NCBI GenBank assembly: GCA_965224385.1
Contig: CBDCYX010000012.1
Location: forward strand, 246,426 to 310,425
Direction of reading: 5' to 3'
DNA: 64,000 bases
From: Bacteriovoracaceae bacterium
Lineage (GTDB): Bacteria > Bdellovibrionota > Bacteriovoracia > Bacteriovoracales > Bacteriovoracaceae
Within the stretch, counting starts at the first letter, position 1, and each line of letters begins with the position of its first letter. Below, piece after piece: positions 4,187 through 64,000 of this stretch. The notes under the pieces are model-generated. The model searched no databases. It was not told where the DNA came from and saw only the letters and a list, made by a program, of their open reading frames with translations. The position numbers and the translations under genes were made by a program.

Positions 4187-4642
4187 ACACCGAGTCCTCA
4201 TGTAATCCTATTACGATTGAAGGAGGGGCAACCGCTAGTTGGATACGGGGTGCCGCCGCAACGGCAGACGTTTGCCTCTTTTCCTGTAGTGCCGGTTTCG
4301 TGAAAAGCGGGAGGGCGTGTAATATCCCCGATACGGGAAATTATGCGGATGGGGCAGGGGCGATGCAAAGTTGCAGTACCCCTACAGGTGGGTTTAACAC
4401 CTTTTTACCCAATTCTTACAAAAGAGGGCATCGCCCGTAAGATCGTTTCTGAAGTTAGCGACGTAAACTGGGCGGGTAAACAGTACATGGATTTACCTTA
4501 CACGACGACAATACTCGATGGTTCAAGCGATGCCGGCGATGACTGCCCCGCCAACGATTTTTGTGTCGCCTTCTGGCGTGTGTTCAAAGGAACAGAAGGA
4601 AATTATGGAATCCCCTTCGGGGATCGGGACTACTCACATTAA
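4187..4642 (+). pseudogene. Dead fragment of the Cys-repeat/RCC1 lipoprotein family: 5'-truncated, internally deleted and out of frame
   Basis: 4187-4420 encodes ..TESSCNPITIEGGATASWIRGAAATADVCLFSCSAGFVKSGRACNIPDTG.., which are Cys repeats like 34633-38295. It is joined out of frame near 4420 to the last ~75 codons (LTKEGIARKIVSEVSDVNWAGKQY..FGDRDYSH*), which differ at 6 of ~228 nt from the 3' end of 55097-58249. Confidence 0.85.
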
Positions 4643-34632: not shown

Positions 34633-37600
34633 TTATGGCAAGTGTGAGTAGTCGGAATCTCCAAAGGGAATACCGTAATTTCCTTCCGTCCCTTTGAACA
34701 CACGATCGAAAACAACACAAAAGGCGGAGTCGGGGCAGTCGTCATTAGGATCGGTTGAACCGTCGAGTTTTGTCGCCGTATAAGGTAAATCCACGTTCTG
34801 CTTACCCGCCCAACTTGCGTCGTCGTTAACTTTCGCTACGATCTTATCGGCAATCTCCTCTTTTGTAAGATTGGAATTTCCAAGGCCGGTGTGTACGCTA
34901 TCGAGGTTGACGGTTTTATCTCCGGTTCCCGTATAGTCCTCCGAGATAACCCATAGTCCTTCTGCTCCGGCAGCGCCGCTTCCTCCAGTGAGGGGGATAT
35001 TGATCTCTACGCGAGTTCTTGTGCAGTTTCCGCCGTCATCGTCGTGGTAGATAGTTAAATTCAATCCGTTAAAGACGGCGGAGTTAACGGTTGCCTCTAT
35101 TTTGTCATTGCCTTTTTTAGCTAACGTCACATTGGTTCCCGCCATGTTCACGGGGGAACCGATCTTTGCAATCAGACTATCTATAACATTGGTAATCATT
35201 GTGCTGCCTCCAGTATTGTACGTTAGCGGTGTCGAATACTCCTTAAGAATCCAAGAACCGCCAAGGGTTCGGCCGGTAAATGCTAGAGCACAAATCTTCC
35301 CGCCTGCATCTGCTTCCAGTGCCGTCGCCGTTGGTGTAGAAACTGCCGTAAGCGTTGCCGTTTCTCCCGTACTCGTTCCCGTTCCGTCGGAACCGCCTGT
35401 CATCGCAACTTCTCCTACGATCTTTCCATAAAAGCCGGTCTCGGCGGCATCAAAATTTTTTCCCCAACACTTAACGGAATTGCCCGATTCCATAATAGCG
35501 CAAGTGTGGTCGTAACTTGCCGCAATTTGAATAGCGGTTTGTCCAACCAAGGGGTCGCCCGCCGTGCCTCTTAAAACCCGATCGGGACCGGAAGTACCGC
35601 CTCCTATCTCACCGTTGTCATTAACCCCCCAACACTTGACGGTCTTATCGCTTAAGAGAACACAACCGTGCTGTGCCCCCAACGTAATCTTTGTGGCGGT
35701 TTTGCCCACGCCTAAGACGGGGAAGCCGAGGTATCCCCAGCACACAACGCTAGCATCGTTGAGGGTGGCGCAAGAACTTGTGCCACCAATTGCAATCTTG
35801 GTGGCGGTTTTGCCGCTACCTAAACTCGGAGTCCCACCGCCTGTTTGCCTGAGGTGATTATACCCCCAGCACTTAACGGAGTTATCCGTTGTTAAGATGG
35901 CACAGGTGTGGAACTCTCCTGCCGCTATATGACTAGCGGTTCCGCTGCCTAAGGGGCTGCCTGACGTACCGCTTTTTGTTTTGTTGGCACCGGCAGTTCC
36001 GCCTCCGCTCTGCCCCCTGTTATTGCGCCCCCAACACTTGACGGTATCGTCGTTTAAAATAGCACAGGTATGCTCTCTTCCTACCGCCACGGACTTGACC
36101 GTGTTAGGGTTGCCGTCTCCATCGTTTCCTACGGCGGTAACAGCTGTCGGGGTGCTTCTAGGGCTAGTATCGCCAACTCCCAGTTGTCTGTTGGAGTTTT
36201 GCCCCCAACACATTAAACGCCCGTGGTTTAAGTTTCCGTTTTTTAAAATAATGCATTGGTGGTTGCGCCCCGACACAAGAGCTTGGGACGTATGGCCCCC
36301 TAAATCCTCCTTGATATGACTTCTCCAAGGGAAGGCACTAACTTTCCCCCATGATTCCACCTCACCGTTATCAAAAAGGACGCGACTGGTGTCTTTTCCA
36401 AGGGCGAGCGTTTGGGGTCTCGCTTTATTGCACATTCTTCCCGATATTGTATAACCCGAGGCACAGGAAAAGGGGCAGGAATCGGCATCGGTGGCAGCTC
36501 CCGATACCCAAGCACCAAAGTTCGGAGTACCCGAAATGTCCGTGCAGGAGACCTCGGCACCCAATGAGTCCACGTAAGTTCCTTGTGTCGGATACTTACA
36601 CCCCCCGGCAGAAGTATCCTTCACATAACCGGCAGTACAGGAAAATGGGCAAGCGGTGTCCGTTGAGGCGGCACCCACTATCCAAGTAGCGACTGCCGTT
36701 CCTTCAGTCGTAATAGCAGTACAGGGGGACTCGGTATTTCCGGCGTTGACGTATTTTCCCTTCGTTGGATAGTTACACTCCCGAGCAGAGGAATCCTTCA
36801 CAAAACCTGCATTACAGGAAAAATCGCAACCGTCAGCAGAATCAACTGCTCCGGTATTTTGCAAAAAGACGTCAAACCCGCTTGCGGCACCTGTGGGGTT
36901 ATCGCAACTTTGCTCGTTTCCTGAACTATCCGCATACTTTCCCGTATCTGGGGTAGCGCACGTTCTACCCACCGTTTTTTTCACAAATCCGGCATTGCAG
37001 GAAAAACCGCAATCGGTAGCAGAATCAACCGCTCCCGTGTTTAGCAAAAAGGTGTTAAACCCACCCGTGGGGTTGTTGCAACTTTGCTCGTCGCCTGAAC
37101 TATCCGCATACTTCCCAAGACCGGGAATATTACACGCCCTACCGGTTTTCACGAAACCCGGACTACAGGAAAAGGGGCAAGCGTCTGCCGTTGCGGCGGC
37201 ACCCCGTATCCAAGTGGCGGTCGCCCCTCCTTGAAGCGTAGTAATAGGATTGCATGATACCTCGGTACCACTCGCATTGACATATGTTCCTTTTGAAGGA
37301 ACGTCACAAGTACTACTTGCCGTGTTTTTTAAATAACCGCCGTCGCAGGTGTAACAGCCGTCCGCAGAGGAAAGTTCCGTTGTTGTCGTAGCAGAAGAAT
37401 GGGGAGGAGTCGGACAAGCTGTCCGAGCTTTGTCGTTTGCAGGAGAATAGAACCCCGATGCGGTTTGTTGGCATTGGGCAGTGTCTACATCATTATCATA
37501 TCCTGCATCGCAAGTCTCCACGGTACAAGTCGTGCTAAAATCGTCTGTGTTTGTATCCCAGAGGTTGAGTCCCCCTCCGTTGGGGACGGGATTAACGGGA

Positions 37601-38295
37601 TTAACGGGACAAGAGCGGGACTTGTTACAGGAAAAAAGAGATTCGCTCTTTGTAAATCCACTGTTACAGGAAAACTCACACTTATCGTTACTTGCCACGG
37701 GAGCAGTGTTGTTTTCCCAGTGAGAAAACCCTCCCGACGGAGTCTCGCCGACATCATTGCAACTCTGTAGATTTCCTTGGGCGTCGTAGTACTTCCCCTT
37801 ACCGGGAAGCGTACATTTTTTGTTGCTTGTATTCTTTAAAGACCCCGCCTTACAGTTCCAGCAGTCGGTTTCCGATTTAGTCCCCGTGGCGGTGTTCCTA
37901 AGAGAATGAGGGGGAAACGTTGTCAGGCATTTTTTCCTAGTCTTGTCCTTTGCGAGAGAGTAGTACCCTGCCTGAGTTTTTCCACATTGTGCTGGATTTG
38001 CAACATTATCATATCCCGCATTACAAGAGACGACTTTGCATGTTGTGCTATATTTTTTGGTTTTGGTATTCCAAGGAAGTTCTCCCTTCCCGTTGGGAAT
38101 AGGAGTCGTACACACTTTAGCAGCTTTAGCTTTTTTACTCGAAGAGGTCGAATCGCCGCCACCACCACTGCTCCCACCACAGCCCGACAGTAAGAGAAGA
38201 GAGAGAAACGTGTGATAAAGGCAGAGCTTCATGTGACCGATCCAAATAGTCGGGAAGGGGTGGGGTAGCATGAGAATATTTTTAAAAGGTTTCAT
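34633..38295 (-). CDS. Large surface lipoprotein: Cys-rich ~50-aa repeats + 7 RCC1-like blades + conserved C-terminal module (family member P1)
   Basis: AAGGAG 6 nt upstream of the ATG at 38295. Lipobox LLLSGC. Repeats of type C.F.C..G..K....C..P..G.Y. Seven (C/S)WG motifs. C-terminus ..DDCPDSAFCVVFDRVFKGTEGNYGIPFGDSDYSHLP. The alternative start at 38232 is also possible. Confidence 0.85.
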   Translation of the reverse strand: MKPFKNILMLPHPFPTIWIGHMKLCLYHTFLSLLLLSGCGGSSGGGGDSTSSSKKAKAAKVCTTPIPNGKGELPWNTKTKKYSTTCKVVSCNAGYDNVANPAQCGKTQAGYYSLAKDKTRKKCLTTFPPHSLRNTATGTKSETDCWNCKAGSLKNTSNKKCTLPGKGKYYDAQGNLQSCNDVGETPSGGFSHWENNTAPVASNDKCEFSCNSGFTKSESLFSCNKSRSCPVNPVNPVPNGGGLNLWDTNTDDFSTTCTVETCDAGYDNDVDTAQCQQTASGFYSPANDKARTACPTPPHSSATTTTELSSADGCYTCDGGYLKNTASSTCDVPSKGTYVNASGTEVSCNPITTLQGGATATWIRGAAATADACPFSCSPGFVKTGRACNIPGLGKYADSSGDEQSCNNPTGGFNTFLLNTGAVDSATDCGFSCNAGFVKKTVGRTCATPDTGKYADSSGNEQSCDNPTGAASGFDVFLQNTGAVDSADGCDFSCNAGFVKDSSARECNYPTKGKYVNAGNTESPCTAITTEGTAVATWIVGAASTDTACPFSCTAGYVKDTSAGGCKYPTQGTYVDSLGAEVSCTDISGTPNFGAWVSGAATDADSCPFSCASGYTISGRMCNKARPQTLALGKDTSRVLFDNGEVESWGKVSAFPWRSHIKEDLGGHTSQALVSGRNHQCIILKNGNLNHGRLMCWGQNSNRQLGVGDTSPRSTPTAVTAVGNDGDGNPNTVKSVAVGREHTCAILNDDTVKCWGRNNRGQSGGGTAGANKTKSGTSGSPLGSGTASHIAAGEFHTCAILTTDNSVKCWGYNHLRQTGGGTPSLGSGKTATKIAIGGTSSCATLNDASVVCWGYLGFPVLGVGKTATKITLGAQHGCVLLSDKTVKCWGVNDNGEIGGGTSGPDRVLRGTAGDPLVGQTAIQIAASYDHTCAIMESGNSVKCWGKNFDAAETGFYGKIVGEVAMTGGSDGTGTSTGETATLTAVSTPTATALEADAGGKICALAFTGRTLGGSWILKEYSTPLTYNTGGSTMITNVIDSLIAKIGSPVNMAGTNVTLAKKGNDKIEATVNSAVFNGLNLTIYHDDDGGNCTRTRVEINIPLTGGSGAAGAEGLWVISEDYTGTGDKTVNLDSVHTGLGNSNLTKEEIADKIVAKVNDDASWAGKQNVDLPYTATKLDGSTDPNDDCPDSAFCVVFDRVFKGTEGNYGIPFGDSDYSHLP

Positions 38296-38408
38296 AAAGC
38301 TCTCCTTGCTTTTAAATGTGGTTAAAAAATAATAGTCCTCCTTTATAATAAATTTTGAACACCGAAAACGCAAAAGATTTTTATATTACCGATTAAAATG
38401 GTTCATTA

Positions 38409-42200: not shown

Positions 42201-43298
42201 GTTCCGGATTTAGGACACAATAAAACGGCCGCTTTCATTTCGGCAGGACATGACAACACCTGTGTTATCTTAAACGATAAAACTGTCAAGTGTTGGGGTA
42301 ACAATGATAATAATGAACTGGGCGGCGGTGTGCCCGATTATACCAAAAACAATAACATCTACACTTATCGGTCTTCCAAGGTTCTAAGGGGGATCAAGTA
42401 CAATCCTTTGGGGGGAGAAAAGGCCCTTTTTATTGCCGTGGGCAGAAACCACGCCTGTGCCGTCGTAGAGACGGGAAATACCGTTAAGTGCTGGGGGGAT
42501 AATGCTTACGGGCAGGCCGTAGGTGCTGTGAAAATGGAAGGGGGAAGCGACGGGACGGGTACGAGTTCCGGAGAGACGGCCGTGCTTACGGTCTCTTCGA
42601 CCCCCACACCGACGGCCTTGGAAGCGGACGCCGGCGGAAAAATCTGCAGGATTTCTCTTTCAGGCGGAGGACTCGGTAGAACTTGGGATATCGTGAACAA
42701 TGTCAATCTTGCCAATCTCCCAACTTATAATAGTTCAAACAATACATCTATTTCAAATGCTATCGACAATCTCGTTAATACCATCGGTACACTTCACTTC
42801 GTTGGGGCCGAGATAACCCTATCCCGAAGCAATAACGACAAAATCGAAGCATCCGTTAATAATGCCGTTTTTGACGGTATGACTCTTAATATCGCCCACG
42901 ACGATAACAGTGGTAATTGTAGTGGCCTGGTGACGACATCTTTTATGTTAAACGGTGGAAGCGGGGCCAATCAGGCCGAAGGAGTTTTGATCGTCAAAGA
43001 CGACTTTAAAGGGTTCGGCGACGGTATGGTCAATATCGACGGTACGGATATTTATTTGAAGGATGTTTTTCCCGCCCATGCAATACAGGAGATCGTAGAT
43101 AAAATCATTGGCGGACTTTCTTCTTTTAACTGGCCGGGAAAACAGTTCGCATCTCTACCCTATAGTGCGGCCAAACTCAATGGCGATACCGATAATAACG
43201 ACGATTGCCCGAGTGGCAATTTTTGTGTCGTCTTCACCCGGATGTTTGCCGGTACGGCCGGGAATGAGGTTATTCCCAAGGCCGATTTCGACTACGAC
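39216..43298 (+). repeat. Unit 1 of the giant ORF (1361 aa, includes the signal peptide and the longest Cys-repeat region)
   Basis: Ends ..NFCVVFTRMFAGTAGNEVIPKADFDYD. Confidence 0.75.
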
Positions 43299-46200
43299 GT
43301 TCCCTCTACCTCCGTTCTTGCAACAACGGCAAACTGCGGGGGCGGCCTTGTGAAAAATTTTCAAGGAAGCGGGAGTTGCGACACTCCCACTTCGGGAAAA
43401 TATGCAAATACTTTCGGAACGCCGATTGATTGTGACCCCGTCGGTGGGGTCGGTTTTAACACTTTTACCGCAAATACGGGAGCGGTCACAACCTCAAAAG
43501 GTTGTGCCTTTTCCTGTCGGGCCGGTTATAAAAAGAACGGTTATACCTGTGCCGTTCCCACGGGGGGGATGTGGGTAGATAACAACGGAGTCGAACAGAC
43601 CTGTACTGCTATTACCCTCGCTCGGGGAGCGAGTCGCATTTGGAAAAGCGGTCCGACAAGCGATGCCGATTCTTGCCTCTTTTCTTGTAGTGCCGGCCAT
43701 GTCCTCAATACTGCCGATAGGAGTTGTGATTTTCCTCCTCAAGGGTCTTTTGTAGACGCAAACGGCCTCCTTAAAGGCATTTGCGACCCCATTGCGCTCG
43801 CTATCGGAGCAACGTCTTCGTGGGTGTCGGGAGCGGCCGACTCAAAGACAGCTTGTTCTTTTTCCTGTAGAAGCGGTTATCTAAAAGATGAAACATTAAG
43901 GGCGTGTAACCATCCGCCTCAAGGACAATATGTCGATAATAACGGAGAAAATCCGATGGTCTGTAGGGTTCCTAGAGATGCCAACTATAAACAATTTGAA
44001 AATGGGCCGGCCGACTCTGCCAACTCCTGCCCTTTTTCATGTAATCAGGGTTATATAGTCAATCTGGGCGATAGGAGTTGTGATATTCCCTCTCCCGGAA
44101 GGTATGCAGACAATAGTGGAAACGAGGCCGATTGTACCGATAATATAGGAGGCATAAACGGAGCTTCCCGTTGGATCCAAAGTCAGGCCCCCGTCTCTTT
44201 CCAGGCGGCCTGCCCATTTACCTGTCTTTCCGGATTTTTAAAGAATTCCCTTTCTAGGAAGTGTAATTATCCTTCGTTGGGAGAATATACTGCCGATGGG
44301 ACAAACACCCTCTCTTGCGGTCCTATTTCCCTTGCCCGGGGGGCCGTTGCCTCTTGGGAGGGGGGCCCAGCGGATGCTGCCGATGCTTGTCCATTTACCT
44401 GTAATGCGGGGTATTTTCCCGACAAGAGAACCTGTCGAAAAATCAACATCAAACCCGTGGCCTTGGCCCTTGGGGCGGAAAGCAGTTACGTTCTTTTAGA
44501 CAACGGTACGATAGAAGGCCAAGGCAACACTTCCGATCCTTCAAAAATTCCTCTCAAAATAGACTTGGGGACTGATACGGCCCAAGCAATTTCGGCCGGA
44601 GACGGACACCGGTGTGCAATTTTGAAAAACGGCAATTTAAAATACGGCCGGCTTATGTGCTGGGGGCGCAACGGAAGCTACCAGCTTGGCCTGAGTGATA
44701 GCAACGACAAAACTACCCCGACGGCCGTTACCCATCTGGGAAGTACCTCTGTGGGTTCTTTGATGGTAAAGAGTGTGGCCGCAGGAGGAGAGCATACCTG
44801 TGCCCTCTTGCAAAACGATACCGTGCGGTGCTGGGGGTCCAACGATTACACTCAGATTGGCGGAAGAAGCGGTTATTATGTAAATAATAGAAAGATAAGA
44901 GGCAGTTACACCGATCCCTTACTCGGAGGAAAGGCCCTCAAAATTGCCGCAGGAGGAAAGCATTCCTGTGCTATTTTAAACAACGGCAGCTTGGTGTGTT
45001 GGGGATCCGACCGTTACAACCAGTCTAGTAATTTGAATTTAGGTGCCGGACGAACGGCCGTCGAGGTTTCGACGGGACTCATTCACACCTGCGCTATTTT
45101 AAATAACGGAGACCTCAAATGTTGGGGAGGGTACGGCCCCGTGAACAACACGTCGTCGGCCGTTCGTATCGCTATGAGTGTCCCGGATTTCGGAGGCAAG
45201 GCCGTCACGCAGGTGGCGGGGTACGATCACACCTGTGCCCTCTTGAACGACAAAACCGTCAAGTGCTGGGGGGGTAACGGCGAGGGGCAGATAGGCGGCG
45301 GCATTGCCGGGGTCAACCGCCTTCTCAGCGGTACTGTAGGCAACCCCTTGAGCGACAGGAAGGCCTTCTTAATTGCGGCCGGTGCGGGCCGTAGTTGTAC
45401 GATCTTGGAGTCTTCAGATTCCGTGAAGTGCTGGGGTAAAGACGACGAAAAACAACTTATTGGTAGTTTGGGCCTTGTAGGGGGTGTCAACGGAATGGGG
45501 ACGAGTGCGGGAGTAAGTGCGCAGTTGACCGCCGCTTCCTCACCGTCAACCACGGCCTTGGGTTCCGATATGAGTGCCATGTTTTGCAAGATAACCCTTT
45601 CCGGCGGAACCCTCACTTCTACCCAAGTCGTCAAGGAAGACCTCAATCTCACTTATAACAGTTCAAACGGAACGAGCATTTCAGATGCCATAACTAATTT
45701 GGTTGCGGCCGTAGGGCCTACCGTCACTTTTGCGGGAGCAATCATTACCCTGTCTAAAAACGGTAGCGACAAAATAGAAGCGACCGTTGACTATCCTTTC
45801 TTTGACGGTATGGATCTTAAAATTCATCACGGCCAGACAAGTTGCAATTCACCCGTCAACACGACGATTTCCCTGAGCGGAGGGGGAGGGGCCGCCCCTG
45901 CAAAAGCTTTGTGGGCCGTCAAAGACGACTTTAACGGACTCGACGACCACACTATCCTCCTAGATACTGTGGAGATCGACCTTGGCAGTAGCGTCCTCAC
46001 GAAAGAACAGATCGTCAATAAAGTTGTACAAGAAATCGGTGGGGGCAGTTGGACGGGCGAGCAATACATAACCCTTCCTTACACAGCGGTCAAACTCGAC
46101 GGGACGACTTCCACCTCCGACGATTGCCCCAGCGGCGATTTTTGTGTGGAGTTTACTCGGGTGTTTGCAGGTAAGGCCGGCAATAACGGCATCCGTTTTC

Positions 46201-49200
46201 CGGATTCCGACTATGAAGTCCTTTCGTTATCTGCGGCCCAATTGGCCTGTGTAAGCGGTGAAGTGAAAAATCTTAAAGGGGCCGGGAGTTGCGATATTCC
46301 CGCTTCCGGAAAATATGTAAATAACGGACAAGAGGTCGATTGCGACCCTGTCGGAGGAGTGTCTAATGCTAGCTCCTTTGAGGTCAACACCGGAGCGGTG
46401 TCTTCAAAGACGGGCTGTGCCTTTTCCTGTCAGGCCGGTTATAAAAAAGATGCCTATGCCTGTAATATTCCCGACGATGGAAGTTATGCCGATGCAAACG
46501 GAAACGAAGTTTCCTGTACGGATATTTCAAACACGCCCCATTTCAGCGCTTGGAAAAGCGGGACGGCCGCCGATGCCAATAGCTGTCCCTTTTCCTGTCA
46601 GACCGGGTATCTGGCCAATCGGCCCCAAGGTACCTGTGATATTCCCGACCCGGGAACCTTTGTGGACGCTTCGGGAGTAGAGCAGAATTGTAACCCCGTC
46701 GGAGGCGTGGCCGGGGTCTCTAAGTGGCCTAGCAATACGGGGCCTGTCAACTTGGTAAATTGTCCTTTCGATTGTGTTAGCGGTTTTCTCAAAGATAGCG
46801 TAACTAGAGAGTGTAACTATCCTCTCTTGGGAGAATACACCGCCGACGGAATAAGCTCGTTGTCCTGTGGTCCAATTATCAAAGATGACGGTGGATTCAA
46901 CGATTGGAAACAGGGGGCCGCCTTCGATGCCGACGGTTGCCCCTTTACCTGTAACCCAACCTATAGTGCCGAAGGCCGTGCCTGTCGAAAAATACAGCGT
47001 AGGCCAGTGGCCCTCTCTTTGGGGTACAAAACAAGCTATGCTCTCTTAGACACAGGTAAAGTTGAGGGTTGGGGTGAGACTATCGATCCCTTGAGTGTCC
47101 CCCACAAGATAAATGTTGGGGCGGATACGCCCCAACAACTTTCCGTCGGCGGCAAACACCGATGTATTATTTTAAAAAATGGAGGTCTTGATCACGGGCC
47201 TGTTAAATGTTGGGGAGAAAACGGCAAGCAACAGCTAGGAATCTCTAATGATAATTACCAAACTCAGCCGACGCTTGTGGCCACAAGTACTCTTTCGACC
47301 ACGGCAAAGTCCGTTTCGGTCGGTGGTAGGCACACCTGTGTCCTCACAAAGAACGATAAGGTCAGATGCTGGGGGGACGTCGGCCAACTCCAAACGGGCG
47401 GAGACCCCTTTAATATCACTCATCAGGGAAATTTCGTAGAAAAAGGTAACTGGTCTTTCCCTTTATGGAAAGGAAGTCAGAACCAAAATGCAAACGCTGT
47501 TTCAGCCGGTTACGAACATACTTGCGCCATCTTGAGAGGGGTTAAAACCGTTACATGTTGGGGGCAAGATGCCCACGGCCAGTCGGCCGGAGGTTCGCCG
47601 AATTTAGGTGTCAACCGAATGGCCAACGGGATTGAGGCGGGAACGAGACACACCTGTGCCCTCTTGGATAACGATAGCGTTAAGTGTTGGGGGAGTTACG
47701 GTAATCAAACGATTTCTTCATCGACAACCTTGGCCTTAAACGGCGGCATCACCAATATTACAAACGGTATTGTCGATTTAGGTAGCAAAACGGCCGTTAA
47801 ACTTACAGGGGCCGGACACACCTGCGCCCTTTTAAACGATGAGACCGTGAAGTGTTGGGGCATTAATGACGAAGGACAGATAGGCGGCGGTGTAGCGAGT
47901 ACCGGCCGTGTCCTCCGCAGTAGCGTAGGAGACCCGGTAAGCGGCCTGGCCGTCCTTGATATAGCAGCAGGATGGGATCATACCTGTGCCATCTTGAAGA
48001 CGACAAACGAAGTAAAATGTTGGGGGAACAATTCCGAAGGACAACTCATCGGTAGCGTTACCATGAAGAACGGCCAAGACGGGGTCGGAACAAGCACGGG
48101 GAAAACCGTCGCACTTTCCGTGAGTACTACTCCAAGTTCAAGTACCCTGGGAAAAAAGTTGAGTGCGAGGCTGTGCGGGATAACCCTTTCCGGCAGGGAC
48201 TTGCAGTCTCCTTGGACTCTTCAAGAATACGATTTTACCTATAACAATAGAAACAACGTCAATCTTAGAGATGCCATTGATAATGTGTTGAAGAAGATTG
48301 GAAGTGCCGACAACGCAGAATACTCTTTTTTGACTCGTGAAACAGTCCTTGAATTTAGAGGGGCGGCAGATGTCTCCGATCCTCTCAATAAAATCACATT
48401 TTCCGTGAAGGGAGGGGGGAGTAAACTGGCAGCGTCCGTAGATACTCCCATCTTTTCCGGTATGAGCTTGAATATTCTGCTCGCTAACGGGGACTGTCAT
48501 TCTTCCTCGGCCCTATCTATTCCCTTAAGCGGAGGAAGTGATACGGCCCAAGCATCGGGACTTTGGGTTGTGGGTCATGACTTTATCGGTTCGGGTGATA
48601 CAAGCGTGCAATTTGATGGGGTGGATATTGATCTTGGAAGTTCGGCCCTGACAAAAAAGGAAATTGCGGATAATCTCGTTGTTAAAATAGGGAGCGCTTC
48701 TTGGGGCGGTAAACAGTATGAAAAATGGCTTTATACGGCAAAAACGGTAGACAGTGCCTTAAACAGCGATTGCCCATCGGGAGACTTCTGTGTACAGTTC
48801 ACCCGTATTTTTCCCGGGATGTTGGGAAACAGCGGTATTCCCTTTGCCGACTCCGATTATGAGATACCCTCCGCTAATGCCCTTGCTTTAGTCTGCAATA
48901 CCGGTCTTGTAAAAAACCTTTTGGATGTAACTTGTGATAATCCTCCTGCGGGAAAATATGCAAATAGCGGACAAGAGATGGATTGCGACCCCGTGGGGGG
49001 AGATGGTTTTAACGTTTTTGAGACCAACACGGGAGCGGTAACGTCTGCTCAAGGTTGTGCTTTTTCCTGCAATGCCGGTTATAAAAAAGCTACCTACTCC
49101 TGTAACGTGCCTGTCGACGGAACGTATGTGGACGGTACAAATACGCCGAAAAATTGCGACCCCGTTACGCTTGCCTTGGGAGCGACGTCTTCTTGGATAT

Positions 49201-51464
49201 CGGGTGCGGCCGACTCTAAACAGGCCTGTCCCTTTTCCTGTTCGTCCGGTTATATTGTCAATAGGGGCGGATGGACTTGTGACCTTCCCGCTCCCGGAAC
49301 TTATGGTCTCGCCAACGGAAGCGAGACCGACTGTAACACTATAGGGGGTGCTCCGAACAGCTTTCAGTGGACGCAAAGTCCCGGTGCCGTCACATCGCCC
49401 TCGACTTGTCCTTATGAATGCCGTGCCGGTTATGTGAGCACTTCGGGCGATAGAACATGCAATTACCCGGGAAGGGGAAGATACGTGAACACCGACGGGA
49501 CAACCCAAGTGGATTGCGACAACCTTACCATGATACCGGGGTTTGAAGATTGGGCCGAAGGATTTGCTACGGCCCGTGATAATTGCCCCTTTAATTGCCT
49601 TCCCGGATATATTAGAGACGGGCGGAGTTGCGAGCAACTTGCGTCGATTAAACCCGTAGGTTTGGCGCTTGATAATATTCACAGTTACGTTCTTTTAAAC
49701 TCCGGTGAAGTGGAGGGTTGGGGGGCCTCTACCGAACTTTTCAAGGTGCCTTTTAAAATAGATTTGGGAGTGACAAACGGTGTAAGGAATACTGCCCAAA
49801 AGATTTTTGCGGGAGTTCATCACACATGTATTGTTTTAACAAACGCAAAGCTGGATCACGGGCCGCTTAAGTGCTGGGGGAGTAATGATCTGGAACAACT
49901 CGGAGTGGGGGATAGGATTGAAAGAACCGTTCCCACCGATGTAACCGCCTTGGGTTTGGATGCAAGCAATAATCCGTATACGGCAAAGATTGTGGCGATG
50001 GGTTCGTATCATACCTGTGCTATCTTAAACGACGATACCGTCAAGTGTTGGGGAGGAAACCACGTCTACGGACAGATAGGCGGTACGGCAAGAAATTCTT
50101 TCGGCAATAATACGATTGTAGAGAGCGGTAGCAGGGGTGATCCTTTAAGTGGAGCAAAGGTTGCGGGGTTGGCCACCGGAGGCGCAAGTTGTGCCATTTT
50201 AAAATCAGATAATTCCGTTAAGTGTTGGGGGTTGGATGACTCAGGCCAGGCCGCCGGCGGTGTGCCGAATTTGGGTACCAACAGAACTGCTGTTCAAGTT
50301 GCGGCAGGGTACTACCATGCCTGCGCTCTCCTAGACGATAAGGGCCTTAAATGTTGGGGGGCCGATAACAACGTTACCATTATCGGAACGGGAGGGGTTC
50401 CCGATTTGGGAGGTCAAACGGCCGATTTCGTTACCTCAGGCCTACATGCCGGGTACATCTGTGCCATCTTGAGCGACGACACCGTCAAGTGTTGGGGCGA
50501 TAATAGAGAAGGCCAGATAGGGGGTACCGCTACGACACCTACATCATCCTATGTACAAATACAAAGGGGGACGGCCGGTGGCCCCTTAGGTACGACCTCG
50601 GCCGCTCAGATTGCCGTGGCACAAGGACACGGCTGTGCTATTATGACGGACGACACCGTCAAGTGTTGGGGGGGAAACAGTAGCGGACAGATTGTGGGCG
50701 CCGTTAGAATGAAAGGTGGAACCGACGGGAGCGGGTCGAGTTGGGGAAAAACCGGCCAGTTAACTACGGATTCCACACCGAGTTCTCTTGCCTTGGATAA
50801 AGATAAAAGCGGTAAGATTTGTAAGATAACCTTGTTGGGCGGAATGCCTAGCAGGACTTGGACGCTGAAGTCCTATCAGACGCCAAAACTCTACAATACA
50901 TCAAGAAATACATCTATTTTCAATGCCATTGACAATATGATCGGCAAAATTGGAACGTTTCAATTTATGGGTGCGTCCGTCTCCTTTTCCAGAAAAGGTA
51001 AAAAGATCAAGGCATCGGTGGATAGTTCTATTTTTGACGGCATGACTCTTGGAATCGTCCATGCCGATAGTTCCGGGGACTGTTCAAGTCCGGTGACGAC
51101 CTCCCTTGTTCTTAGTGCCGGAACCGTTGGGGCCAAGGCGACGGGACTTTGGGTTATAGGGGATTCTTTTTCAGGAAAGAGCGACGATACAACCGTTCAT
51201 CTCGACGGTGCGACCGTTGACTTGGGTACCTCCTCCCTTACCAAAGAACAGATTGCCAATAACATCATAGGGAGAGTTATCGACGCCGGTTGGATGGGAA
51301 AACAGTACAAAACGCTACCTTATATGGCCGAAAAAATCGACGGAGCGACCGATTCCGCCGACGATTGCCCAAACAATGACTTCTGTGTTCTCTTCACCCG
51401 TATTTTCCCGGGGACGACCGGAAACGAGGGTATTCCCTTTCCCGACTCGGATTATGCCAAGTAG
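39216..51464 (+). CDS. Giant (4082-aa) surface lipoprotein made of four tandem Cys-repeat/RCC1/C-terminal-module units (family member P2)
   Basis: GGGAGG 8 nt upstream of the ATG. Lipobox ILLVSC. Uninterrupted ORF. The ..DDCP..FCV.FTR.F.G..GN..I.F.DSDY motif occurs four times. Confidence 0.85.
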   Translation: MNGRFGISVVYICLILLVSCGDNSSGGKKSTTSKDIQTLDCSNEIINGTGHKKWNTKTKSYRNVCEISGCYGGFDTLEDSAICLETLIGYYSPPESKLREECPGTPPQNASLVTDTSGISTRHECWICNDGFIKDEQGNCVPPAKGKYVDAEGRESACSPIMGNGFKEFRGHGGTSPEGCNFSCKSSHTKNTQTKTCDERNKASQYCQVGNGEGIRIGGGSTCYITSCDDGYDNIKDRTKCEETPSGFYSFLGRKITCPNPFNSIPTDRTGLSSPYNCYSCEPGYKKRERGSGLCILPFRGKYVDTTGIEQSCTEIQGEGFKSFIKNTEGVMSADECDFVCRKGFKKNIVGRTCDNIALANIPGATPDATPGETPNVVPEVTSEYCSIENGMGQKFCQGGQCGSCEVQRCNKSYKPNTKNSTNHLCTAAVKNCSQEIANGKGRRRWHASTNAYGACKVVQCSIGYVDKKTSCAIPDSGKYADKNGKEKSCESLGGTGSGRFPDNTKGVRRPEDCNFECDAGFVKDVPGYACNIPPTGWYANNRGEKNRCDNMAGSGMGRHLRNTEGVTTAQGCAFTCDLGYVKDMSSYSCNIPNLGKYVGGGVVKNCGIVVHGQRTLNTGAVTTATGCNFACDAGYIKDMRNYSCNIPTLGQYSGPLRTERPCQVIINGRHTANAGAVANPTSCNFACDAGYVKDQDNYTCNVPNLGKYVDNANNELPCTNITNIPDFNSWESGPATDDDSCPFSCQPNFVVNGRTCKKEVPKVTALALEQHKSYALFNNGKVERWGGSLGVPRKVNLGSDKAQAVFSGQNHTCVILKNASLDHGRVLCWGENNYGQLGVGDMIDKSVPTAVTFLGSKTAKALGLGYEHTCALLNDDTVSCWGRGVEGQIGGRGSLPGIKIESGSTNNPLSGGTAVQIAAGYYHTCAILNNGSIKCWGLATSAQTGGGTPSLGNNKTAKHLALADLHSCAVLNDDSVYCWGAGVSGNPIYIGQGGVPDLGHNKTAAFISAGHDNTCVILNDKTVKCWGNNDNNELGGGVPDYTKNNNIYTYRSSKVLRGIKYNPLGGEKALFIAVGRNHACAVVETGNTVKCWGDNAYGQAVGAVKMEGGSDGTGTSSGETAVLTVSSTPTPTALEADAGGKICRISLSGGGLGRTWDIVNNVNLANLPTYNSSNNTSISNAIDNLVNTIGTLHFVGAEITLSRSNNDKIEASVNNAVFDGMTLNIAHDDNSGNCSGLVTTSFMLNGGSGANQAEGVLIVKDDFKGFGDGMVNIDGTDIYLKDVFPAHAIQEIVDKIIGGLSSFNWPGKQFASLPYSAAKLNGDTDNNDDCPSGNFCVVFTRMFAGTAGNEVIPKADFDYDVPSTSVLATTANCGGGLVKNFQGSGSCDTPTSGKYANTFGTPIDCDPVGGVGFNTFTANTGAVTTSKGCAFSCRAGYKKNGYTCAVPTGGMWVDNNGVEQTCTAITLARGASRIWKSGPTSDADSCLFSCSAGHVLNTADRSCDFPPQGSFVDANGLLKGICDPIALAIGATSSWVSGAADSKTACSFSCRSGYLKDETLRACNHPPQGQYVDNNGENPMVCRVPRDANYKQFENGPADSANSCPFSCNQGYIVNLGDRSCDIPSPGRYADNSGNEADCTDNIGGINGASRWIQSQAPVSFQAACPFTCLSGFLKNSLSRKCNYPSLGEYTADGTNTLSCGPISLARGAVASWEGGPADAADACPFTCNAGYFPDKRTCRKINIKPVALALGAESSYVLLDNGTIEGQGNTSDPSKIPLKIDLGTDTAQAISAGDGHRCAILKNGNLKYGRLMCWGRNGSYQLGLSDSNDKTTPTAVTHLGSTSVGSLMVKSVAAGGEHTCALLQNDTVRCWGSNDYTQIGGRSGYYVNNRKIRGSYTDPLLGGKALKIAAGGKHSCAILNNGSLVCWGSDRYNQSSNLNLGAGRTAVEVSTGLIHTCAILNNGDLKCWGGYGPVNNTSSAVRIAMSVPDFGGKAVTQVAGYDHTCALLNDKTVKCWGGNGEGQIGGGIAGVNRLLSGTVGNPLSDRKAFLIAAGAGRSCTILESSDSVKCWGKDDEKQLIGSLGLVGGVNGMGTSAGVSAQLTAASSPSTTALGSDMSAMFCKITLSGGTLTSTQVVKEDLNLTYNSSNGTSISDAITNLVAAVGPTVTFAGAIITLSKNGSDKIEATVDYPFFDGMDLKIHHGQTSCNSPVNTTISLSGGGGAAPAKALWAVKDDFNGLDDHTILLDTVEIDLGSSVLTKEQIVNKVVQEIGGGSWTGEQYITLPYTAVKLDGTTSTSDDCPSGDFCVEFTRVFAGKAGNNGIRFPDSDYEVLSLSAAQLACVSGEVKNLKGAGSCDIPASGKYVNNGQEVDCDPVGGVSNASSFEVNTGAVSSKTGCAFSCQAGYKKDAYACNIPDDGSYADANGNEVSCTDISNTPHFSAWKSGTAADANSCPFSCQTGYLANRPQGTCDIPDPGTFVDASGVEQNCNPVGGVAGVSKWPSNTGPVNLVNCPFDCVSGFLKDSVTRECNYPLLGEYTADGISSLSCGPIIKDDGGFNDWKQGAAFDADGCPFTCNPTYSAEGRACRKIQRRPVALSLGYKTSYALLDTGKVEGWGETIDPLSVPHKINVGADTPQQLSVGGKHRCIILKNGGLDHGPVKCWGENGKQQLGISNDNYQTQPTLVATSTLSTTAKSVSVGGRHTCVLTKNDKVRCWGDVGQLQTGGDPFNITHQGNFVEKGNWSFPLWKGSQNQNANAVSAGYEHTCAILRGVKTVTCWGQDAHGQSAGGSPNLGVNRMANGIEAGTRHTCALLDNDSVKCWGSYGNQTISSSTTLALNGGITNITNGIVDLGSKTAVKLTGAGHTCALLNDETVKCWGINDEGQIGGGVASTGRVLRSSVGDPVSGLAVLDIAAGWDHTCAILKTTNEVKCWGNNSEGQLIGSVTMKNGQDGVGTSTGKTVALSVSTTPSSSTLGKKLSARLCGITLSGRDLQSPWTLQEYDFTYNNRNNVNLRDAIDNVLKKIGSADNAEYSFLTRETVLEFRGAADVSDPLNKITFSVKGGGSKLAASVDTPIFSGMSLNILLANGDCHSSSALSIPLSGGSDTAQASGLWVVGHDFIGSGDTSVQFDGVDIDLGSSALTKKEIADNLVVKIGSASWGGKQYEKWLYTAKTVDSALNSDCPSGDFCVQFTRIFPGMLGNSGIPFADSDYEIPSANALALVCNTGLVKNLLDVTCDNPPAGKYANSGQEMDCDPVGGDGFNVFETNTGAVTSAQGCAFSCNAGYKKATYSCNVPVDGTYVDGTNTPKNCDPVTLALGATSSWISGAADSKQACPFSCSSGYIVNRGGWTCDLPAPGTYGLANGSETDCNTIGGAPNSFQWTQSPGAVTSPSTCPYECRAGYVSTSGDRTCNYPGRGRYVNTDGTTQVDCDNLTMIPGFEDWAEGFATARDNCPFNCLPGYIRDGRSCEQLASIKPVGLALDNIHSYVLLNSGEVEGWGASTELFKVPFKIDLGVTNGVRNTAQKIFAGVHHTCIVLTNAKLDHGPLKCWGSNDLEQLGVGDRIERTVPTDVTALGLDASNNPYTAKIVAMGSYHTCAILNDDTVKCWGGNHVYGQIGGTARNSFGNNTIVESGSRGDPLSGAKVAGLATGGASCAILKSDNSVKCWGLDDSGQAAGGVPNLGTNRTAVQVAAGYYHACALLDDKGLKCWGADNNVTIIGTGGVPDLGGQTADFVTSGLHAGYICAILSDDTVKCWGDNREGQIGGTATTPTSSYVQIQRGTAGGPLGTTSAAQIAVAQGHGCAIMTDDTVKCWGGNSSGQIVGAVRMKGGTDGSGSSWGKTGQLTTDSTPSSLALDKDKSGKICKITLLGGMPSRTWTLKSYQTPKLYNTSRNTSIFNAIDNMIGKIGTFQFMGASVSFSRKGKKIKASVDSSIFDGMTLGIVHADSSGDCSSPVTTSLVLSAGTVGAKATGLWVIGDSFSGKSDDTTVHLDGATVDLGTSSLTKEQIANNIIGRVIDAGWMGKQYKTLPYMAEKIDGATDSADDCPNNDFCVLFTRIFPGTTGNEGIPFPDSDYAK
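43299..46217 (+). repeat. Unit 2 of the giant ORF (973 aa)
   Basis: Starts ..CGGGLVKNFQGSGSCDTPTSGKY and ends ..GDFCVEFTRVFAGKAGNNGIRFPDSDYE. Confidence 0.75.
46218..48863 (+). repeat. Unit 3 of the giant ORF (882 aa)
   Basis: Starts ..ACVSGEVKNLKGAGSCDIPASGKY and ends ..GDFCVQFTRIFPGMLGNSGIPFADSDYE. Confidence 0.75.
48864..51461 (+). repeat. Unit 4 of the giant ORF (866 aa)
   Basis: Starts ..VCNTGLVKNLLDVTCDNPPAGKY and ends ..NDFCVLFTRIFPGTTGNEGIPFPDSDYAK. Confidence 0.75.
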
Positions 51465-55096: not shown

Positions 55097-58000
55097 TTAA
55101 TGTGAGTAGTCCCGATCCCCGAAGGGGATCCCGTAATTTCCTTCCGTTCCTTTGAACACACGCCAGAAGGCGACACAAAAGTCGTTGGCGGGGCAGTCAT
55201 CGCCGGCATCGCTTGAACCATCGAGTATTGTCGTCGTGTAAGGTAAATCCACGTACTGTTTACCCGCCCAGTTTACGTCGCTAACTTCAGAAACGATCTT
55301 ACTGGCGATGCCCTCTTTTGTAAGAGAGGAAGTTCCAAGGTCAATATGTACGCTATCGAGGTTGACGGTTTTATCTCCCGATCCGCTAAAGTCGTTCGAG
55401 ATAACCCATAGTCCTTCGGCCTCAGCGGCCCCGCTTCCTCCGGTAAGGGGGATAGCGGTTGTTACTACAGTACCTGTTGTGCAATCTCCGCCGTTATCGT
55501 CGTGGTAGATAGTTAAAGTCATTCCATCAAGGATGGCGTTGTTAACGGTCGCCTCTATTTTGTCATTGTCTTTTTTAGCTAACGTCACGTTAATTGTTCC
55601 CGCTACGTTCACGGTGGAACCGATCGCCGCAATCAGGTTATCTATAGCATCGGTAATCGCCGTACTGCCTCCCCCATTATACGTTAGCGGTGTTGTATAC
55701 TCTTTAGCAACCCAAGAACCAAGGGTTCCGCTAAGGGTTCCGCCGGAAAGTTCTATCTTACAAATCTGCCCGTCTTCATCCGAGTCCAAGGCGGTTGCCG
55801 TCGGTGTAGCAACTGCCGTAAGTACTTGGGACTCTCCCGTACTCGTTCCCGTTCCATCGGTTCCGCCTGCCATCGCAACTTCTCCTACGATCTGTCCGTA
55901 AAAGCCGGAGTCGTTTTCATCAATATTACTTCCCCAACACTTAACGGAGTGATCCGACTCCATAATGGCGCAATTGTGTTCGTAACCTGTCGCAATTTCA
56001 ATAGCAGTTTGTCCACCCAAGGGGTCGCCCTCCGTCGTGCCTCTTAAAACACGACTGGAAGCATCAACCCCGCTTCCTAGCTGACCGACAGGGTTCCTCC
56101 CCCAGCAGTATACAGTCTTATCGGTTAAGAGAGCACAAGCGTGATTTCCCCCCACCGTAACCCTAGTGGCAGTTTTGTTAACCCCCAAGGAGGGGGAAGG
56201 GATTCTCTTGTTTCCCCAGCACTTAACGCTAGCGTCGTTGAGAATGGCGCAAGAAGAGATGTCTCCCACTGCAATCTCGGTGGCGGTTTTGTTAACCCCT
56301 AAATTCGGTGTCCCGCCGCTGGTTTGCCCCCAGGCATTGGTCCCCCAGCATTGAACGGTGCTATCTGTCAAGACGGCACAGGTGTGCCATCTTCCCGCCG
56401 ATATGCGATTAGCGGTTGTGCTACCTAAGGGGCCACCTACCGTGCCGCTTATTGTGTTCTTGGCACCGGAGCCGCCTCCTATCTGCCCGTTGCTGTTCTG
56501 CCCCCAGCACTTGACGGTATCGTCGTTTAAGAGTGCGCAGGTATGCTCGTCTCCCGCCGCCACGGACTTGACCGTCTTGGGGGTCGCCCCGTCTCCGGTG
56601 TCTCCCAAGACGGCAACGCTAACATCTGTCGGAGTGCTTCTCGGGTTAGTATCGCCAACTCCCAGTTGTTCGCCGCCGTTTTGCCCCCAACACATTAAAC
56701 GCCCGTGGTTTAAGCTTCCGTTTTTTAAAATAATGCATTGGTGGTTGTACCCCGACTCAAGAGCTTGAGGCGTATTATTACCTAAGTTCTCCTTGATATG
56801 AGTTTTGAAAGGGGAGGTACTAACACTCCCCCATGCTTCCACCTCACCGTTATCAAAAAGGACGTGACTGGAGCTTCTCCCAAGGGCGAGGGTTTGGGGT
56901 CTCGCTTTATTGCACGTTCTTCCCGATATTGTATAACCCGAGGCACAGGAAAAGGGGCAGGAATCGGCATCGGTGGCAGCTCCATCTAACCAAGAACCAA
57001 AGCCCGTCATACCCGTAATGTTCGTGCAACCGACCTCGGTACCCGATGCGTTGACGTAATTCCCGAGTGTTGGATACTTACACTCCCGAGCAGAGGAATC
57101 CTTCAAATAACCGGCACTACAGGAAAAGGGACAGGTGGCGGCCGTTGCGGCGGCACCCGCTATCCAAGTAGCGGTTGCCGTTCCTTCAGTCGTAATAGGA
57201 TTAGAATCACAGGATGCCTCGGTATTTCCGGTGTTGACGTAATTTCCTGTGGAAGGAAAGTTACAAGACCTTCCGCTTTTCACGAAACCTGTACTACAGG
57301 AAAACCCGCAACCGTCGGCGGCAGACACCGCTCCCGTATTGGCGACAAAGTCATCAAACCCTCCTGTGTCTTCCGTGATAGGAGAGCAAGATTTCTCTAC
57401 TCCGTTATCCGCATAATGTCCCTTACGGGGAATATTACACGCCCTCCCGCTTTTCACAAAACCTGTACTACAGGAAAAGGGACAGGCGTCTGCCGTTGCG
57501 GCGGCACCCGCTATCCAAGTAGCGGTTGCCCCTCTTTGAAGCGTAATAGGACTGCATGATACCTCGGTACCACTCGCATTGACATGTTTTCCTTTTGAAG
57601 GAACGCCACAAGTATTTTCTCCCGTGTTTTTTAAATAACCGCCGTCGCAGGTGTAACAGCCATCCGCAGAGGAAAGCTCCGTCGTTGTCGCAGGAGAGGA
57701 GTTGCTAGGCGTAGGGCAAGCTGTTCGGGCATTATTGTTTGCAGGCGAGTAAAAGTTCGCCGCCGTCTGTTGGCATTTTGTCGGGTCTTGGGTGTTGTCG
57801 TATCCTCCAGCACAGGTAAAACAAGCGTCTGCGGAAGAGCGCCCTGTCGTTGTCGTAGGAGAGGAGTTGTTAGGCGTAGAACAAGCGATTCGGGCATTAT
57901 TGTTTGTAGGCGAATAGTAGGTCGCCGCCGTCGGTTGGCATTCTGTTTTATCCACGACGTTGTCGTAACCTGCATCGCAAGCAGTTATTGTGCAAGTCTC

Positions 58001-63020: not shown

Positions 63021-64000
63021 TTAGTGTTCGTAGTCCCGATCTCCGAAGGGGATTCCGTAATTTCCTTCCGTCCCTTTGAACACACGCCAGAAGGCGACAC
63101 AAAAGTCGTTGGCGGGGCAGTCATCGCCGGCATTGCTTGAACCGTTGAGTATTGTCGTCGTGTAAGGTAAATCCTTGTACTGCTTACCCGCCCAGTTTAC
63201 GTCGCTAACTTCAGAAACGATCTTACGGGCGATGCCCTCTTTTGTAAGAGAGGAAGTTCCAAGGTCAATGTGTACGCTATCGAGATTGATGGTTTTATCT
63301 CCCGATCCGGTAAAGTCGTTCGAGATAACCCAGAGTCCTTCTGCTCCGGCGGCACCGCTTCCTCCGGCAAGGGGGATAGCGCTCGTCACTACAGTACCTG
63401 TTGTGCAATCTCCGCCGTTATCGTCGTGGTAGATAGTTAAAGTCATTCCGTCAAAGACGGCGGAGTTAACGGTCGCCTCTATTTTGTTGCCTTGTTTAGA
63501 CAAAGTCACGTCGGTTGTCGCCAAATTTACGGGGGAACCGATCGTTGCAATCAGGTTATCTATAGCAGCGGAAATCGTCGTACTGCCTCTCCCATTATAC
63601 GTTAGCGGAGTTGTATAGTTTTTAACAACCCAAGGGTCGCTAAGGTTTCCCTCGGAAAGAGTTAGAGCACAAACCTTCCCTCTTGCATCTGCTTCCAGTG
63701 CCGTCGCCGTCGGTATAGAAGTTGCCGTAAGCGTTGCCGTTTCTCCCGTACTCGTTCCCATTCCGTCGGATCCGCCTGTCATCGGAACTTCTCCTACGAT
63801 CTGTCCGTAAAAACCATTGCCATTGTTATCAATATTACGTCCCCAACACTTAACGGAATTGTCCGACTCCATAATGGCGCAGGTGTGGTTGTAACCTGTT
63901 TCAACTTGAATAGCGGTTTGTCCGCCCAAGGGGTCACCCAATGTGCCTCTTAAAACCTGATGGGAACCGGCAGTTCCGCCTCCAATCTGAGCTTTGTCAT
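63021..64000 (-). CDS. Surface lipoprotein family member P4, 3' part only (continues beyond the window)
   Basis: The frame stays open to 64000 (..QIGGGTAGSHQVLRGTLGDPLGGQTAIQ..). The C-terminal module is highly similar to P3 and ends ..FGDRDYEH. Confidence 0.85.
   Translation of the reverse strand, partial: DKAQIGGGTAGSHQVLRGTLGDPLGGQTAIQVETGYNHTCAIMESDNSVKCWGRNIDNNGNGFYGQIVGEVPMTGGSDGMGTSTGETATLTATSIPTATALEADARGKVCALTLSEGNLSDPWVVKNYTTPLTYNGRGSTTISAAIDNLIATIGSPVNLATTDVTLSKQGNKIEATVNSAVFDGMTLTIYHDDNGGDCTTGTVVTSAIPLAGGSGAAGAEGLWVISNDFTGSGDKTINLDSVHIDLGTSSLTKEGIARKIVSEVSDVNWAGKQYKDLPYTTTILNGSSNAGDDCPANDFCVAFWRVFKGTEGNYGIPFGDRDYEH

Follow-up and report, generated by a model that had tools for sequence, protein, structure and literature searches.

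An undescribed two-lobe module at the C-termini of RCC1-propeller lipoproteins in a probable member of the Bacteriovoracaceae

To our knowledge, prey recognition in Bdellovibrio-like predators is poorly understood, and the MAT fibres of one species are the sole characterised system. The 21 MAT fibres of Bdellovibrio bacteriovorus vary at their C-terminal tips, and one of these tips binds glycans of the prey (Caulton et al. 2024, PMC10769870). These fibres are trimeric beta-helix/beta-prism proteins that share an N-terminal beta-rich domain of approximately 130 amino acids (aa) and often contain an S74 chaperone-protease (PMC10769870). Here we describe a family of lipoproteins encoded in a stretch of 64,000 nucleotides (nt), hereafter the window (contig C12, positions 246426-310425), of a 2.66 Mb genome assembly that consists of 16 contigs and is 96% complete. 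Each unit of these lipoproteins ends with the same module, which has no counterpart in any of the domain and structure libraries that we searched and is rare beyond this genome. We favour the interpretation that the module is a membrane-distal binding or adhesion head of lipid-anchored stalk-propeller proteins, an interpretation whose chances we put at about even.

Motif searches and alignment, followed by a profile search, delineated seven complete copies of the module in the window (M1 to M7) and one dead fragment (Table 1). An earlier reading made from the DNA letters of the window (the sequence-only reading) had likewise counted seven modules, to which the eighth, partial and dead copy, located in a short open reading frame (ORF) of 112 aa (4304-4639, plus strand), is now added. 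The seven complete copies are 256-275 aa long, are 42-81% identical in pairwise comparisons and have 49 invariant columns, four cysteines among them. In a genome search with the profile built from these seven sequences, the individual copies scored E = 1e-113 to 5e-134, which excludes a chance origin. The length of approximately 300 aa and the span 34633-35560 given by the sequence-only reading had to be revised: the coding strand is the minus strand, and besides M1, which is the C-terminal domain of the lipoprotein ORF 34633-38373, this span takes in the stop codon and, at its other end, approximately 47 codons of the last RCC1 propeller blade (Pfam RCC1_2, covering only residues 10-36 of the 308-aa translated span). 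Throughout, residue numbers and the structure model refer to M6.

The four host ORFs (34633-38373; 39216-51464, a giant ORF of 4082 aa; 55097-58249; and 63021->64000) share a common build, in which a lipobox signal (LLSGC, LVSC or LSSC, followed by G/S-rich linkers) is succeeded by a stalk of cysteine-rich repeats of about 50 aa, a seven-bladed propeller matching Pfam RCC1_2, RCC1 and WD40_RLD, and finally the module. Because the module comes last in this order, no other part of the protein lies as far from the lipid anchor. The profile of the seven copies matches 54 places in the genome, and a six-frame hmmsearch identified 29 full modules in 21 intact ORFs, together with one nearly full copy and approximately 8 frameshifted or truncated remnants (the remnants include C12:156711-157663, C12:432142-432980, C16:913936-915188, C16:934378-935145 and C16:1400356-1401532). 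An LLSGCG-type lipobox is present in 15 of the 21 intact ORFs, and in all 21 proteins the module is the last domain, with the chain ending 2-6 residues past the D.DY motif. Modules that are not terminal stand directly before either a second module, in the five proteins with back-to-back pairs, or the next unit, in the giant ORF and in one two-unit ORF. Proteins ending in two modules include those encoded at C16:229779-231293, C16:330607-332145, C16:996684-998210 and C13:26739-28280.

The distribution of the module outside this genome is narrow. It is absent from all 40 related genomes examined, which include 24 other genera of the same family, and the module pattern was found in none of 185,579 species, each scanned in one genome. 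Among 1.84 billion representative proteins searched exhaustively with HMMER, only 38 matched at E <= 1e-3, 15 of these at E <= 1e-30; the close matches are proteins of ENA metagenome assemblies, and their identity to the most similar copy of the present genome is 52-98%. In the maximum-likelihood tree, the metagenome copies interleave with the copies of this genome, indicating a small clade of related organisms, each with its own repertoire. The four modules of the giant ORF form old, long branches in this tree. The second modules of the tandem pairs make up one clade (support 100/99) whereas the first modules fall into at least two other clades, which suggests that the tandem arrangement is old and that the first position has been replaced or converted.

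The organism itself probably belongs to the Bacteriovoracaceae (Bdellovibrionota), to judge from a single gene, that for the large subunit of ribonucleotide reductase (RNR; 27745-30111, minus strand), the product of which is 74-76% identical to proteins from metagenome-assembled genomes (MAGs) labelled Bacteriovoracaceae, Halobacteriovoraceae or Bacteriovorax. The next-closest matches come from Bacteroidota (63-67% identity) and not from other proteobacteria-like groups. An ancient exchange of the RNR operon between the two phyla could account for this Bacteroidota affinity of the class I RNR.

Searches for a known domain gave consistently negative results. When the full proteins and the module were scanned against Pfam and NCBIfam, RCC1 was the only match, and the scan of the module against PHROGs produced none. 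With the module halves and the distant repeats discussed below, scans of Pfam, NCBIfam and PHROGs down to E = 10 yielded only noise (EF-hand_5, E 0.14; I-TevI_DNA-bd, 0.15; PyrR, 0.07), and the RCC1 models (PF00415, PF13540 and PF25390) matched neither half of the module even at E <= 10. Profiles of the whole module and of its C-terminal lobe, compared with PDB sequences, retrieved nothing meaningful, the best hits being inulinase (E 0.54) and ribosomal protein L1 (1.6). The first AlphaFold model, made from seven alignment rows, had a predicted local distance difference test (pLDDT) score of 73.5, and its structural matches, antibody light chains at a template modelling (TM) score of 0.2, were rejected as noise. 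It was replaced by a model based on a 46-row alignment that combined the window copies, the other genome copies, the metagenome copies and the distant relatives (pLDDT 91.2; predicted TM score 0.84; 203 of the 263 residues above 90), in which two beta-alpha-beta lobes are apparent. When this model was searched with Foldseek, neither PDB nor BFVD yielded a match at E <= 1e-3; the best-ranked PDB entry, a weak one, was domains D2-D3 of Salmonella FliD (5h5t; E 6.8e-3, probability 0.77, 164 columns). A literature search for a connection of RCC1 with Bdellovibrio lipoproteins or with Bacteriovorax/Halobacteriovorax was likewise negative. Neither the profile scans nor Foldseek on the AlphaFold model thus returned a confident match to a well-characterised family, and the view of the sequence-only reading that the module is no described secretion tag, anchor or enzymatic domain is upheld in Pfam, NCBIfam, PHROGs and PDB sequences to E <= 10.

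In the 46-row model, the module, whose division into lobes the sequence-only reading had missed, is composed of a strand-rich arm (residues 1-35), an N-lobe (approximately 36-135) and a C-lobe (approximately 140-260). The predicted elements are beta41-49, beta58-69, alpha78-89, beta92-96, beta99-106, beta110-115 and beta123-130 in the N-lobe, and beta142-147, beta158-163, hairpin 174-183, alpha191-202, alpha210-214, beta217-223, beta237-243 and beta254-256 in the C-lobe; confidence is lowest in loop 50-57 and in the linker between the lobes (approximately 131-140). M4 differs from the other copies by an N-lobe insertion of approximately 16-24 aa. Comparison of the two lobes with hhalign gave a probability of 7-10%, that is, no detectable sequence similarity, so that an internal duplication, which we considered, is undetectable by sequence; the order of the secondary structure elements is loosely similar.

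Four cysteines are invariant in 62 copies, one pair in each lobe (Cys43/Cys136 and Cys232/Cys238). They may form two intradomain disulfides, which would fit with an extracytoplasmic location. The N-lobe of M1 contains, in addition to its pair (Cys43 and Cys132, the latter equivalent to Cys136 of M6), a hypervariable stretch and a DxDxDG-like loop, and the C-lobe of M1 carries an inserted Cys-x5-Cys loop (DDCPxxxFC) and a conserved end motif, G..GN.GIPF.D.DY. Of 63 modules, 57 have a loop just before Cys43 that conforms to the pattern [DE]x[DN]x[DNSG]Gx[IVLF]C. A canonical EF-hand loop has ligands at positions 1, 3, 5 and 12, a glycine at position 6 and a hydrophobic residue at position 8; the strict 12-residue pattern including position 12 is present in 8 of the 63 modules, and the EF-hand_5 match to the module scores 12.2 bits against the Pfam cut-off of 25.9. 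We therefore treat the loop as a lead only, a candidate site that may bind calcium.

Although of unknown fold, as the sequence-only reading had it, the module is not wholly isolated: its C-lobe has distant relatives that are equally uncharacterised. Five proteins from the search of 1.84e9 sequences (P0019, P0020, P0022, P0023 and P0038) match only profile positions of approximately 135-257, 2-10 times each, as head-to-tail repeats of about 100 aa. The whole-sequence E-values of these tandem-repeat relatives range from 3e-20 to 1.5e-4, and the values for individual repeats from approximately 2e-12 for the best ones to 1e-3, the reporting limit; weaker C-lobe matches are found in P0031, P0034, P0036 and P0037. 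The C-lobe and the repeats have in common the motif D.sItIDGv.I.LG.saLT..qIA..i..G..Y...YTv...a...FTR...G..GN.gl...D..Y, and conservation across the C-lobe and its relatives includes D172, D178, L184, G209, Y217, R243, G247, G250, N251, D258 and Y261. By profile homology over the whole unit and by these motifs, the C-lobe is a surface repeat of the P0019, P0022 and P0023 type (whole-sequence E-values 3e-20 to 5e-14), to which the N-lobe does not belong. The relatives of P0023 are all labelled hypothetical, and one relative, P0076, is annotated as 'MAG: hypothetical protein WC565_07135 [Parcubacteria group bacterium]'. The C-lobe thus belongs to a broader and hitherto undescribed family of extracellular repeats, within which the lipoprotein form has acquired the Cys-x5-Cys loop. 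Of the relatives, the lipoproteins P0024, P0029, P0032 and P0035 all possess this cysteine pair, which none of the tandem-repeat proteins has. Neither the C-lobe nor the repeat form is characterised or represented in Pfam. A metagenome protein of 852 aa, P0039, has one C-lobe-type unit at each end, and its middle part consists of cysteine-rich repeats (CPFACDLGYHKDG..C) much like the stalk repeats of the window lipoproteins; stalk repeats and the C-lobe thus co-occur in a second, unrelated architecture.

Outside the lipoprotein family, relatives of the N-lobe were found only in small stand-alone lipoproteins. Three of these, P0024 (322 aa), P0026 (265 aa) and P0035 (349 aa), consist of a signal peptide, with a lipobox in each case, and the module. 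P0024, a singleton with no relatives among 5.8 billion clusters, matches the module over both lobes in full and has both cysteine pairs; in P0035 the match covers profile positions 113-256, comprising the C-lobe and the final part of the N-lobe, and all four cysteines are retained in the MAFFT alignment; the match of P0026 runs from the N-lobe into the C-lobe and diverges past the middle of the latter. Together with the tandem pairs, these stand-alone lipoproteins indicate that the module is able to fold and function independently.

The sequence-only reading had also noticed a variable stretch after the ..TAL.. motif, flanked by conserved segments, and proposed that conservation and the ratio of nonsynonymous to synonymous rates (dN/dS) be followed along the copies. 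Both measures single out this stretch. Its entropy is 1.44 bits (residues ~36-70) compared with 0.81-1.0 in the flanks. By crude Nei-Gojobori counts over 142 module pairs of at least 62% identity, which are not phylogenetically independent and in which recombination is ignored, the module medians are dN 0.21, dS 0.34 and dN/dS 0.62; along the module, the proportion of nonsynonymous differences (pN) peaks at residues 36-65 (0.26-0.35), where its ratio to the proportion of synonymous differences (pS) is 1.1-1.7. The entropy over 62 copies agrees with the pN pattern and peaks at residues ~36-70. At the opposite extreme, the last 25 residues combine a pS of 0.41-0.47 with a pN of 0.07-0.13 (ratio 0.16-0.3 at residues 236-260), a combination of high pS and low pN that indicates true purifying selection on the protein.

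The copies are, moreover, mosaic. M1 shares an exact tract of 186 nt with a copy on another contig (47 expected), and a pair that is 84% identical overall shares an exact tract of 145 nt (27 expected). Between M6 and M7, identity rises from 63-69% in the 5' third to 92-98% in the 3' half. Genes for Rpn-type PD-(D/E)XK or YhgA-like 'transposase' nucleases directly adjoin the 3' ends of family members (Table 1), and possibly aid recombination among the paralogs.

In our reading, the module is an autonomous, extracytoplasmic domain that is non-enzymatic by every test available. If it is a distal binding head, the conserved core and the end motif would maintain the fold, and possibly also a ligand or Ca2+ site common to the copies, and a surface patch centred on residues 36-70 would owe its diversity to duplication, positive selection and gene conversion among the copies, resulting in a repertoire of related but distinct binding specificities. 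By analogy with the MAT fibres, the most plausible use of such a repertoire would be the recognition of prey or other cell surfaces. The more specific proposal, that the approximately 30 modules are recombination-diversified recognition heads on a previously unseen two-lobe fold, with which an uncultivated predator would address different prey or partner surfaces and in which gene conversion would create new specificities, appears to us rather unlikely; if true, it would mean that the task performed by the MAT fibres in Bdellovibrio has been solved a second time, by structurally unrelated means.

Several observations weigh against a binding head. The dN/dS of approximately 0.6 is not specific to the module (propeller 0.66, stalk 0.53), and in nine paralogs with a single unit the module does not exceed the propeller in variability (median identity 69% and 70%, respectively), so that the propeller could equally be the ligand-binding part. 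In two of the three windows with pN/pS above 1, residues 111-130 and 181-200, the ratio is due to a low pS (approximately 0.1) and not to a high pN, a pattern that resembles homogenisation through gene conversion; much of the dN/dS pattern could be accounted for if young paralogs are under relaxed constraint and gene conversion lowers their dS, and the non-independence of the pairs compared calls for the same caution. The exposure of the lipoproteins on the cell surface, rather than in the periplasm, is assumed, and the predatory lifestyle is presumed from taxonomy alone.

The best-surviving alternative holds that the module is a structural cap or spacer, a disulfide-locked end domain that closes or stabilises the RCC1 propeller or packs a surface coat and is devoid of intrinsic ligand specificity, with variation resulting from neutral drift of paralogs that are partly homogenised. 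The uniform dN/dS of approximately 0.6 across stalk, propeller and module, the equal conservation of module and propeller and the lack of an identified conserved pocket or catalytic motif all agree with this scenario, as do the relatives of the C-lobe, given that tandem repeats are typical of structural surface proteins. However, P0024, P0026 and P0035 carry the module without a propeller, so the module is not solely a propeller cap. The variability is, furthermore, concentrated, with a pN peak at residues 36-65 and a constrained end motif, which favours a functional surface over uniform drift, and the retention of 21 intact genes (96 kb) in a genome of 2.66 Mb argues for a selected repertoire. 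We consider a cap or spacer to be unlikely on these grounds.

We regard as less probable still that the module is a C-terminal domain for export, surface translocation or anchoring that is read by an outer-membrane machine flipping or secreting the lipoprotein, comparable to the domains of Slam lipoproteins or the C-terminal domains (CTDs) of the type IX secretion system (T9SS). The invariably terminal position would be expected of such a domain; P0024, P0029, P0032 and P0035 also end right past the D.DY motif, and the last ~25 residues, with dN/dS of 0.16-0.3 at a high dS, are the most constrained part of the module. Nevertheless, three copies are internal in the giant ORF and five proteins contain tandem pairs; in other proteins, including at least one from a Parcubacteria MAG, the homologue of the C-lobe is repeated internally in tandem; and a length of 260 aa is far above the sizes of known tags. 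Models of sorting domains (T9SS CTD, PEP-CTERM, LPXTG, GlyGly-CTERM and similar) in NCBIfam and Pfam had no match, and the C-terminus, ...GIPFGDRDYSH, is hydrophilic and has no hydrophobic tail. The Slam model (PF04575) did not match the genome either, but it also matched none of 14 control genomes, so this result carries little weight. The judgement of the sequence-only reading that a C-terminal sorting signal is unlikely, made from the internal copies, is therefore strengthened.

A third possibility, compatible with a binding role, is that the module is a remote relative of FliD D2-D3 or of the outer domains of flagellin that was re-used on lipoproteins. Besides FliD being the top Foldseek match of the high-confidence model, the motif xIxIDGxxIxL...lt..qia..I resembles what we take to be the 'IN' motif of flagellin and FliD. 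Nonetheless, the superposition of 5h5t on the whole two-lobe model is poor (TM 0.22-0.27, root-mean-square deviation 9 A), PF07196 (Flagellin_IN) matches neither the lobes, nor the repeats, nor the genome at E <= 10, hhalign of the C-lobe and of the whole module against ten Bacteriovoracaceae FliD proteins gave a probability of 1-2%, and the sequence-profile search of PDB retrieved nothing. Kinship with Flagellin_IN or FliD is hence rejected at the level of sequence, and a remote structural relationship is doubtful. Finally, an enzymatic role, such as the modification of glycans or peptidoglycan by a domain delivered on the stalk, is very improbable: D172, D178, Y217, R243, N251, D258 and Y261 are (near-)invariant even in distant relatives, but no catalytic family matches by sequence or fold and the same residues are kept in arrays of up to ten repeats, as is typical of structural or binding repeats.

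The distal binding head thus continues to be the interpretation that we favour. The 21 intact ORFs account for 3.6% of the genome, an investment by a different lineage of the same phylum as Bdellovibrio in lipoproteins with one undescribed end domain. Should the module be a binding head, it would provide a new fold for surface recognition, in the form of small, autonomous, disulfide-stabilised natural variants that would be tractable for mapping specificity. The lipoprotein family is, in addition, linked to an equally unknown repeat of surface proteins, and the two-lobe module and the C-lobe repeat are two new domain families within a familiar kind of system, that of paralogous modular surface proteins.

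The coordinates of the features discussed here are collected in Table 1. The window also contains a gene (21542-24061, plus strand) for an 839-aa protein with many TPR/Sel1 repeats and a C-terminal trypsin-like peptidase domain (Trypsin_2, E 8.6e-22).

Table 1. Module copies, their parts and adjoining features in the window (aa, amino acids)
Feature	Position	Strand	Basis
Dead partial copy, profile positions 181-257	4409..4639	+	E 2.8e-39; = C12:250834-251064
Nuclease gene, PDDEXK_2 E 1e-17	33801-34316	+	Pfam
Stop codon of M1 ORF	34633-34635	-	
M1, 261 aa, copy named in the sequence-only reading	34636..35418	-	profile positions 1-258, E 1.8e-130
M1 residues 135-261, C-lobe	34636..35016	-	profile homology to ~100-aa tandem repeats
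M1 residues 36-134, N-lobe (beta-beta-alpha-beta4)	35017..35313	-	model secondary structure, pN/pS, entropy
M1 residues 1-35, conserved strand-rich arm GGxDGxGTSxG...LT..STP..TAL	35314..35418	-	model strands pLDDT 91-94; low entropy
Last RCC1 propeller blade, ~47 codons, outside the module	35419..35560	-	Pfam RCC1_2, E 8.5e-8
M2, internal, end of unit 1 of giant ORF 39216-51464	42519..43307	+	motif, alignment, profile
M3, internal, end of unit 2 of giant ORF 39216-51464	45459..46226	+	motif, alignment, profile
M4, internal, end of unit 3 of giant ORF 39216-51464	48048..48872	+	motif, alignment, profile
M5, terminal, end of unit 4 of giant ORF 39216-51464	50694..51461	+	motif, alignment, profile
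M6, 263 aa, C-terminus of lipoprotein ORF 55097-58249	55100..55888	-	motif, alignment, profile, model
EF-hand/DxDxDG-like loop DSDEDGQIC, M6 residues 35-43, E at position 12	55760-55786	-	
Nuclease gene, Transposase_31 E 3e-28	59014-60000	+	Pfam
Similar-looking ORF, judged by eye	60702-61217	+	
M7, C-terminus of ORF 63021->64000 running off the window end	63024..63797	-	motif, alignment, profile

Among known systems, the tandem-repeat relatives share sequence homology with the C-lobe. Both occur in exported proteins, but the relatives are cysteine-free arrays of 2-10 units with an N-terminal signal or membrane helix and a C-terminal PG_binding_1 or Big_5 domain, whereas the window family has a single C-lobe unit with a Cys-x5-Cys loop, fused to a lineage-specific N-lobe and placed at the C-terminus of a lipoprotein. 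The stand-alone lipoproteins P0024, P0026 and P0035 have neither stalk nor propeller and are 22-27% identical to the module in the alignment. FliD D2-D3 and the module are both beta-rich with a packed helix and are located on exposed bacterial structures, yet FliD lacks the cysteines, is not arranged in two such lobes and is not part of a lipoprotein. With the MAT fibres, the lipoproteins share the phylum Bdellovibrionota, the number of genes (21 in one case and 21 intact ones in the other) and the nature of long exported proteins with a membrane-distal C-terminal end. Unlike the MAT tips, in which different folds are swapped among the members, the tips of the lipoproteins keep the same fold and vary by point changes and gene conversion. 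Given that the latter proteins are built from a lipobox, cysteine-rich repeats and an RCC1 propeller, the likeness that we propose to the MAT fibres is one of function, with no claim of sequence kinship.

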